63,760 bases of DNA from Elusimicrobiota bacterium (GTDB lineage: Bacteria; Elusimicrobiota; Elusimicrobia; UBA1565; UBA9628): contig DATLSD010000007.1 in assembly GCA_035534315.1 (NCBI GenBank), positions 1-63,760 of the forward strand, written 5' to 3'. Positions 39,092-39,490 of the stretch are shown piece after piece. The notes under the pieces were generated by a model, which was given only the letters and a program-made list of their open reading frames with translations, was not told the DNA's origin and searched no databases. Made by a program: the position numbers and the translations under genes. Position 1 is the stretch's first letter; the number at the start of each line of letters is the position of its first letter.

Positions 39092-39490
39092 AATCAGAGG
39101 AGGCGGCCTGTACCCCGAATTCTGTCTGGCCCCGCCGCTTGCGCGGACGCGGAGCGAGGGAATCATTTCTCTGATGCGGCCACCGGGCGGCCGCCTCGTC
39201 TATCACCCGAGGTTGCGCGGGCCGCGCGAACCGCCCTACTGCCTTGCTCCCGGCGGGGTTTGCCTGGACCCGCTGCCTCGCGGCAGCGGCGGTGAGCTCT
39301 TGCCTCGCCTTTTCACCCTTGCCCGCCCCGGCAAAGCCGGGACCGGCGGTTTGTTTCTGTGGCACTTTCCATCGCCCGGGCCTTTCGCCCCGGGCGTCCC
39401 GCCTTTCGGCGGGCGCCGCGCCCGGTGGAGTTCGGAGGTTCCTCTCCGCCGCCTTAAAAGACGGCGAAGCGACTCCCCGGCCGCCTCCAA
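39092..39490 (-). ncRNA. rnpB: RNase P RNA, bacterial type A
   Basis: Minus-strand transcript. P1 is GGAGGCGGCC (39488-39479) pairing with GGCCGCCUCC (39108-39099). Blocks align to E. coli M1 RNA: GUGCCACAGAAACAAACCGCC, GGCAAGGGUGAAAAGGCGAGGCAAGAGCUCACCGC, CCGGGAGCAAGGC, CAGAGAAAUGAU, ACAGAAUUCGGGGUA. The ends are approximate (+/-5 nt). Confidence 0.9.

Follow-up and report, generated by a model that had tools for sequence, protein, structure and literature searches.

The 63,760-nucleotide stretch of Elusimicrobiota DNA analysed here (the window) carries an rnpB gene whose RNA has swapped base pairs beside the catalytic bulge of helix P4. From sequence comparison, this is very probably the functional housekeeping RNase P RNA of crown-group Elusimicrobia, and the swap would be tolerated compensatory drift and not a new active site. 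Together with its protein partner RnpA, the RNA is predicted to cleave 5′ leaders from tRNA precursors through the usual two-metal mechanism.

The gene was identified with cmscan as a match to RF00010 (score 168 bits, gathering threshold 100, E-value 2e-52). The alignment spans the full model (1–367), with no non-standard pairs flagged in P1, P2 or P3. A sequence-only reading had placed an unannotated type-A RNase P RNA on the minus strand, in a 443-nt gap between hemB and a zinc-ribbon gene. The class, the strand and the gap (from the hemB start at 39079 to the zinc-ribbon stop at 39523) agree with our analysis; "unannotated" is true of the raw input only, as Rfam detects the gene far above threshold. 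The locus consists of the following genes:

39523–40278, minus strand: CT398-like coiled coil and C4 zinc-ribbon protein, upstream neighbour (PF24481, PF02591)
39095–39488, minus strand: rnpB, bacterial type-A RNase P RNA without P18, 394 nt by the covariance model
38108–39079, minus strand: hemB (ALAD), downstream neighbour (PF00490)
36837–38120, minus strand: hemL-type aminotransferase gene, which comes after hemB and overlaps it (PF00202)

These genes (36837–40278) lie head to tail, and the successive junctions are a 34-nt gap, a 15-nt gap and a 13-nt overlap. A promoter scan found no sigma-70-like promoter (0.1 expected). Because of this and the head-to-tail arrangement, rnpB may be processed from a longer transcript that also covers the heme genes. 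Terminator-like matches within rnpB are the RNA's own helices. The RNA is more stable than chance (MFE z-score −3.2; none of 100 shuffles was equally stable).

The helices outside P4 are arranged as follows:

39479–39488, minus strand: P1 5′ strand, paired with 39099–39108
39099–39108, minus strand: P1 3′ strand
39398–39413, minus strand: P8 (6 bp, from the cmscan alignment), with a GAAA tetraloop at 39404–39407 replacing the usual UAAC-type L8
39373–39396, minus strand: P9 (8 bp)
39270–39309, minus strand: P13 and P14, type-A S-domain helices
39178–39246, minus strand: J5/15 adenines, P15, L15, P16, P17 with the P6 loop, and an extra hairpin
39182–39184, minus strand: L15 GGU, partner of the tRNA 3′ RCCA
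39219–39222, minus strand: P6 loop in the P17 region
39194–39212, minus strand: extra hairpin in P16/17
39164–39177, minus strand: single-stranded P15-to-P2 junction, P18 absent (a 23-column gap in the cmscan alignment)
39130–39154, minus strand: P19

P1 pairs at all 10 positions, the length given to it in the sequence-only reading, and P2, P3, P6, P8, P9, P14–P17 and P19 all pair. A type-A RNA is defined by the presence of P6, P16 and P17 and the absence of P5.1, P10.1 and P15.1 (PMC7191817). The window RNA has the first three (4/4, 6/6 and 4/4 pairs, respectively) and no insertions at the sites of the last three. Its S-domain contains P13/P14 and the conserved regions CR-II and CR-III. Two traits had been overlooked earlier, namely the missing P18 and the GAAA tetraloop as L8. 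P18 is typical of type A but does not define it; its presence was judged by eye from alignments, as the automatic hairpin score is confounded by P15/P16 pairing.

The window RNA resembles E. coli M1 RNA, the Thermotoga maritima RNA and the RF00010 consensus in P1–P17 and P19, the P6 pseudoknot, P13/P14, the L15 GGU, an 8-bp P4 with bulged U69, A351/A352 and an RnpA partner. It differs from them in C67–G359, C68–G358, the A–U pairs at 73/74, the GAAA L8, the absence of P18 and the extra hairpin in P16/17. Loss of P18, and with it the L18–P8 contact, is described for Chlorobium and Aquificales (PMC8457005). The window shares this loss, apparently by an independent event; P18 loss in Elusimicrobia is not reported in the papers that could be searched.

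The P4 elements, in E. coli numbering, are:

39431–39439, minus strand: P4 5′ strand (CR-I), A66 to A74, with C67 at 39438, C68 at 39437 and the bulged U69 at 39436
39112–39119, minus strand: P4 3′ strand (CR-V), U353 to U360, with G358 at 39114 and G359 at 39113
39121 and 39120, minus strand: A351 and A352
39111, minus strand: A361

All eight pairs (A66–U360, C67–G359, C68–G358, C70–G357, C71–G356, G72–C355, A73–U354 and A74–U353) are Watson–Crick, and U69 is bulged. Relative to the Rfam consensus, A–U has become C–G at 67–359, G–C has become C–G at 68–358, and G–C has become A–U at both 73–354 and 74–353. The sequence-only reading had described these four compensatory swaps around a retained bulged U, and the P4 columns of the Rfam class A covariance model confirm the variant strands. 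The canonical 3′ strand has no match elsewhere in the RNA or in the assembly of the window genome, so neither a differently placed canonical P4 nor a second canonical copy, the cases that had been named against that description, was found there. The single further copy of the 15-mer from the variant 3′ strand, on contig C60, overlaps a TTGACA-like hexamer upstream of parA and is accompanied by no further RNase P sequence.

The changed positions had been called normally invariant. This is overstated: pair 68 is the only one whose change is rare in bacteria; pairs 73 and 74 vary routinely, and pair 67 covaries widely in Actinomycetota. A–U occurs at pair 73 in 82 and at pair 74 in 101 of 115 Elusimicrobiota RNAs, also in RNAs with the canonical A67/G68. 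Among the GTDB matches listed in a scan for non-A67 RNAs, 118 of 120 have C67 or G67 (111 from Actinomycetota records), at least 95 being C67–G68 and at least 23 G67–G68; the partner matches wherever the 3′ strand was read. Actinomycetota RNAs thus share the compensatory C67–G359 with the window but keep G68–C358. In a sample from the phylum of an Alphaproteobacteria record, A67 is present in all but one of 73 matches (72/73). At position 68, other lineages show U68–A358 (n = 15), A68–U358 (n = 7) and C68–G358 (n = 1).

In the E. coli enzyme–substrate structure, metal is held by the phosphates of A67/G68 and by O4 of U69 (PMC9433436). Because the contacts are to phosphates and to U69, the bases at 67/68 are not reported ligands. 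The swap had been placed in the metal-binding core; binding through phosphates means that base swaps need not alter catalysis. The window RNA keeps every reported ligand (bulged U69 and the phosphates of 67/68) and also retains A66 and A351/A352. Its catalytic metals would sit on the 67/68 phosphates and U69 O4, leaving the bases free to change if the helix geometry holds. The residue before the bulge is U in yeast and Methanocaldococcus jannaschii (A91–U92–U93 and G40–U41–U42), with the same geometry (PMC6565675). These RNAs resemble the window in having a pyrimidine before the bulged U and the same two-metal site (PMC6565675). However, they need several protein subunits, whereas the window RNA is of bacterial type A, has P13/P14 and is partnered by RnpA alone; the resemblance of the active sites is convergent.

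An alternative is that the changed pairs remodel the active site, with a shifted bulge register or an altered metal or substrate preference. One paper counts G68 among the components of the metal site in P4 (PMC11221534). With P4 states written as residues 67 and 68 over 358 and 359, isolated-duplex calculations make a bulge at U68 or U69 isoenergetic in CU/GG, and predict the bulge-free register of AU/GG (family f16) to be more stable. The window's own CC/GG favours the U69 bulge by 3 kcal mol−1 over other bulge positions, and its shifted bulge-free register scores about equal to the U69-bulged form (again as isolated duplexes). U69, A66–U360, C70–G357 and A361 are invariant in 115/115 RNAs, and M. 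jannaschii, with U41–U42 at this place, still uses U42 (PMC6565675). We consider remodelling improbable.

Both P4 strands were read in 115 housekeeping RNAs of the phylum Elusimicrobiota. C67 with C or U at 68, opposite G358–G359, is present in 71 of 71 copies from one clade, comprising 56/56 in the window's order and 15/15 in families f8–f11; 18 are CC/GG and 53 are CU/GG. The covariation is lineage-wide, which was the comparison that the sequence-only reading had proposed. About 80 further f10 genomes have the same P4 5′ strand. In a metagenome scan for non-G68 RNAs, 64/64 two-strand CC/GG or CU/GG matches were nearest to this clade, as assigned with the P4 strands masked against a reference set mainly of Elusimicrobiota and Actinomycetota. 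The variant is not exclusive to Elusimicrobia: CU/GG is also found in two genomes of another lineage (G462 and G467) and in one tRNA-array copy. Relatives of these two genomes (G466 and G468) have U68–A358 (CU/AG), and CU/GG arose there independently. No paper on Elusimicrobia RNase P or on this variant was found, several classic comparative papers being outside the search.

The window gene is the sole RF00010 match in its genome, whose assembly is 70% complete. The rnpA gene of this genome is intact in an rpmH–rnpA cluster (PF00825, 85 bits), and the same 70% complete assembly gave no HARP match. Because the assembly is incomplete, relatives decide whether this is a working gene. One of them (G187) was identified by exact protein match as Elusimicrobium minutum Pei191, with a complete 1.64-Mb chromosome; this identification also assigns the window to the class Elusimicrobia. 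It has a single rnpB, with C67–G359 and U68·G358 (CU/GG), and one rnpA; neither HARP nor any other RNase P was found in the complete genome. Since the activity is essential and this genome holds no alternative enzyme, we infer that the CU/GG variant works in E. minutum. By the same sole-copy status, the window RNA would catalyse Mg-dependent cleavage of pre-tRNA 5′ leaders. The locus could instead be a decayed or spare copy, and the 30% of the genome that the assembly lacks would then encode a canonical rnpB or a HARP; some relatives do have an additional RNase P RNA, and family f12 apparently relies on HARP. We regard this as extremely unlikely. In near-complete and complete relatives the variant rnpB is the only copy and HARP is absent, and the complete E. 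minutum genome contradicts a spare copy directly. The window rnpB differs from same-genus copies at 9–15 positions, none of them in P4 or the conserved regions, and the RNR motif of RnpA is kept. The pseudogene case raised with the original description is rejected on these grounds.

The swap appears to have had a mismatched precursor. In 29 genomes from seven sister families (f5, f6, f13, f14, f16, f19 and f30), A67 faces G359 in a mismatch next to the catalytic bulge (all carriers are MAG sequences, among which no cultured member was identified; those of f19 and f30 belong to another class). It mostly accompanies G68·U358, and accompanies U68·G358 in four f16 genomes. Two genomes (L336 in G070 and L321 in G072) have a second mismatch at 68, with A67·G359 next to A68·A358 or G68·G358; the bulge in these RNAs may be shifted to position 68. 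In a rooted RpoB tree (a single gene and a quick search with no bootstrap, five outside genomes as root and an unresolved base), the C67 families are monophyletic (SH-aLRT 100), with f16 as their sister (99). Family f16 has A67 in 7/7 and G359 in 6/7. C67 requires one change on this tree; five changes were counted for G359. The single C67 change and the sister position of the A67/G359 family f16 suggest that G359 came first and that C67 repaired the pair. U68 to C recurs in several genera.

The steps would then be as follows. Early in the phylum, G would have replaced U359, once or several times, which left A67·G359 with G68·U358. Pair 68–358 became U·G. A single A67-to-C change at the root of the crown clade would then have restored a Watson–Crick pair. 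Finally, U68 to C would have completed the helix repeatedly, giving the CC/GG of the window. The energies of the U69-bulged duplexes, calculated for isolated duplexes in which tertiary and protein contacts are ignored, are −0.7 (AG/UG), +0.3 (AU/GG), −5.9 (CU/GG) and −8.9 kcal mol−1 (CC/GG), against −6.5 kcal mol−1 when 67/68 are canonical and the distal pairs are unchanged. These modelled values fit a mismatch-then-repair order.

It is also conceivable, though we think it unlikely, that the swapped P4 pairs are adaptive and belong to a reorganised interdomain strut: after P18 was lost, L8 would have become a GNRA loop with the tandem C–G pairs at 67/68 as its putative receptor, which would strengthen the L8–P4 contact. 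In the window RNA, as in almost every RNA of its order, L8 is GAAA or GCAA and P18 is absent. The L8–P4 contact is the more important one, either strut alone can hold the domains, and among A-minor receptors tandem G–C pairs are the most stable (PMC8457005). These traits separate across families, however, and an obligate coupling of the swap to P18 loss or to a GNRA L8 is ruled out. Family f7 has no P18 yet a canonical P4, f5 has a GNRA L8 with A67/G68, and f13 retains P18 alongside the mismatch. In the lineage that reached CU/GG independently, L8 is UAAC and P18 is intact. Among the 71 carriers, 53 have U68·G358, not tandem C–G.

Other RNase P arrangements were observed among the relatives. 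Family f12 (G313–G324, same class; L371–L374), the sister of the mismatch-bearing f13/f14, has no RF00010 match in 12/12 genomes, several of them 93–100% complete. It lacks rnpA in 5/5 and has HARP (PF08745) in 4/4 tested, and has apparently replaced RNA-based RNase P with this protein-only enzyme; we found no relevant paper on HARP in this family. Five genomes have a second, divergent RNase P RNA of 293–327 nt with a remodelled S-domain, located in arrays of 4–27 tRNA genes (L409 in G017, L410 in G020, L411 in G039, L412 in G047 and L413 in G075). The window gene is unlike this type, with no tRNA gene within 1.5 kb and a normal S-domain. Four of the array copies have the canonical A67/G68 and the G075 copy is CU/GG. 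Some adjoin ORFs that resemble RtcB, TROVE/Ro60 or HNH by eye, and in G039 the array copy and the housekeeping copy are on one 445-kb contig. An array copy in G020 (L061, L410:3931–4107) is only 177 nt long and has P18 and the two strands of P4 but lacks an S-domain; it is a minimal RNA reduced to the C-domain, or else a deletion. In two f17 genomes (L343 in G351 and L344 in G350; 73–81% complete), the sole RNase P RNA found belongs to the tRNA-array type but has no adjoining tRNAs, and may have taken the place of the housekeeping gene. RNase P RNA-like matches with a non-G68 P4 (L196 and L257) lie on contigs with phage-like ORFs. Two f7 RNAs of 318–320 nt (L346 in G078 and L347 in G077) score below the Rfam threshold and apparently lack P8/P9, with CR-II about 15 nt after P5.

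The window RNA is a lineage-specific core variant of a well-known RNA family, and the sequence of E. minutum was made public long ago. The variant motif marks the clade, though not exclusively, and most Elusimicrobia would be overlooked by rnpB searches or primers designed around the canonical P4 motifs. What is fixed in the ribozyme core is A66–U360, the bulged U69 and C70–G357; pairs 67 and 68 tolerate swaps and even mismatches. Backbone-based metal binding very probably explains the swap, and the main interest lies in the mismatch intermediates. Much of the phylum carries A67·G359 in its essential ribozyme, and the window's clade would have repaired the mismatch on the other strand. There is some chance, although a minor one, that these P4 states alter active-site geometry, the register of the bulge or the need for protein to a measurable degree, or that they are coupled to the GNRA L8 and P18 loss. 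If so, they would form a natural stepwise series for testing sequence against helix shape in P4 catalysis. E. minutum is a cultured representative of this natural series of compensatory evolution and allows a direct test.
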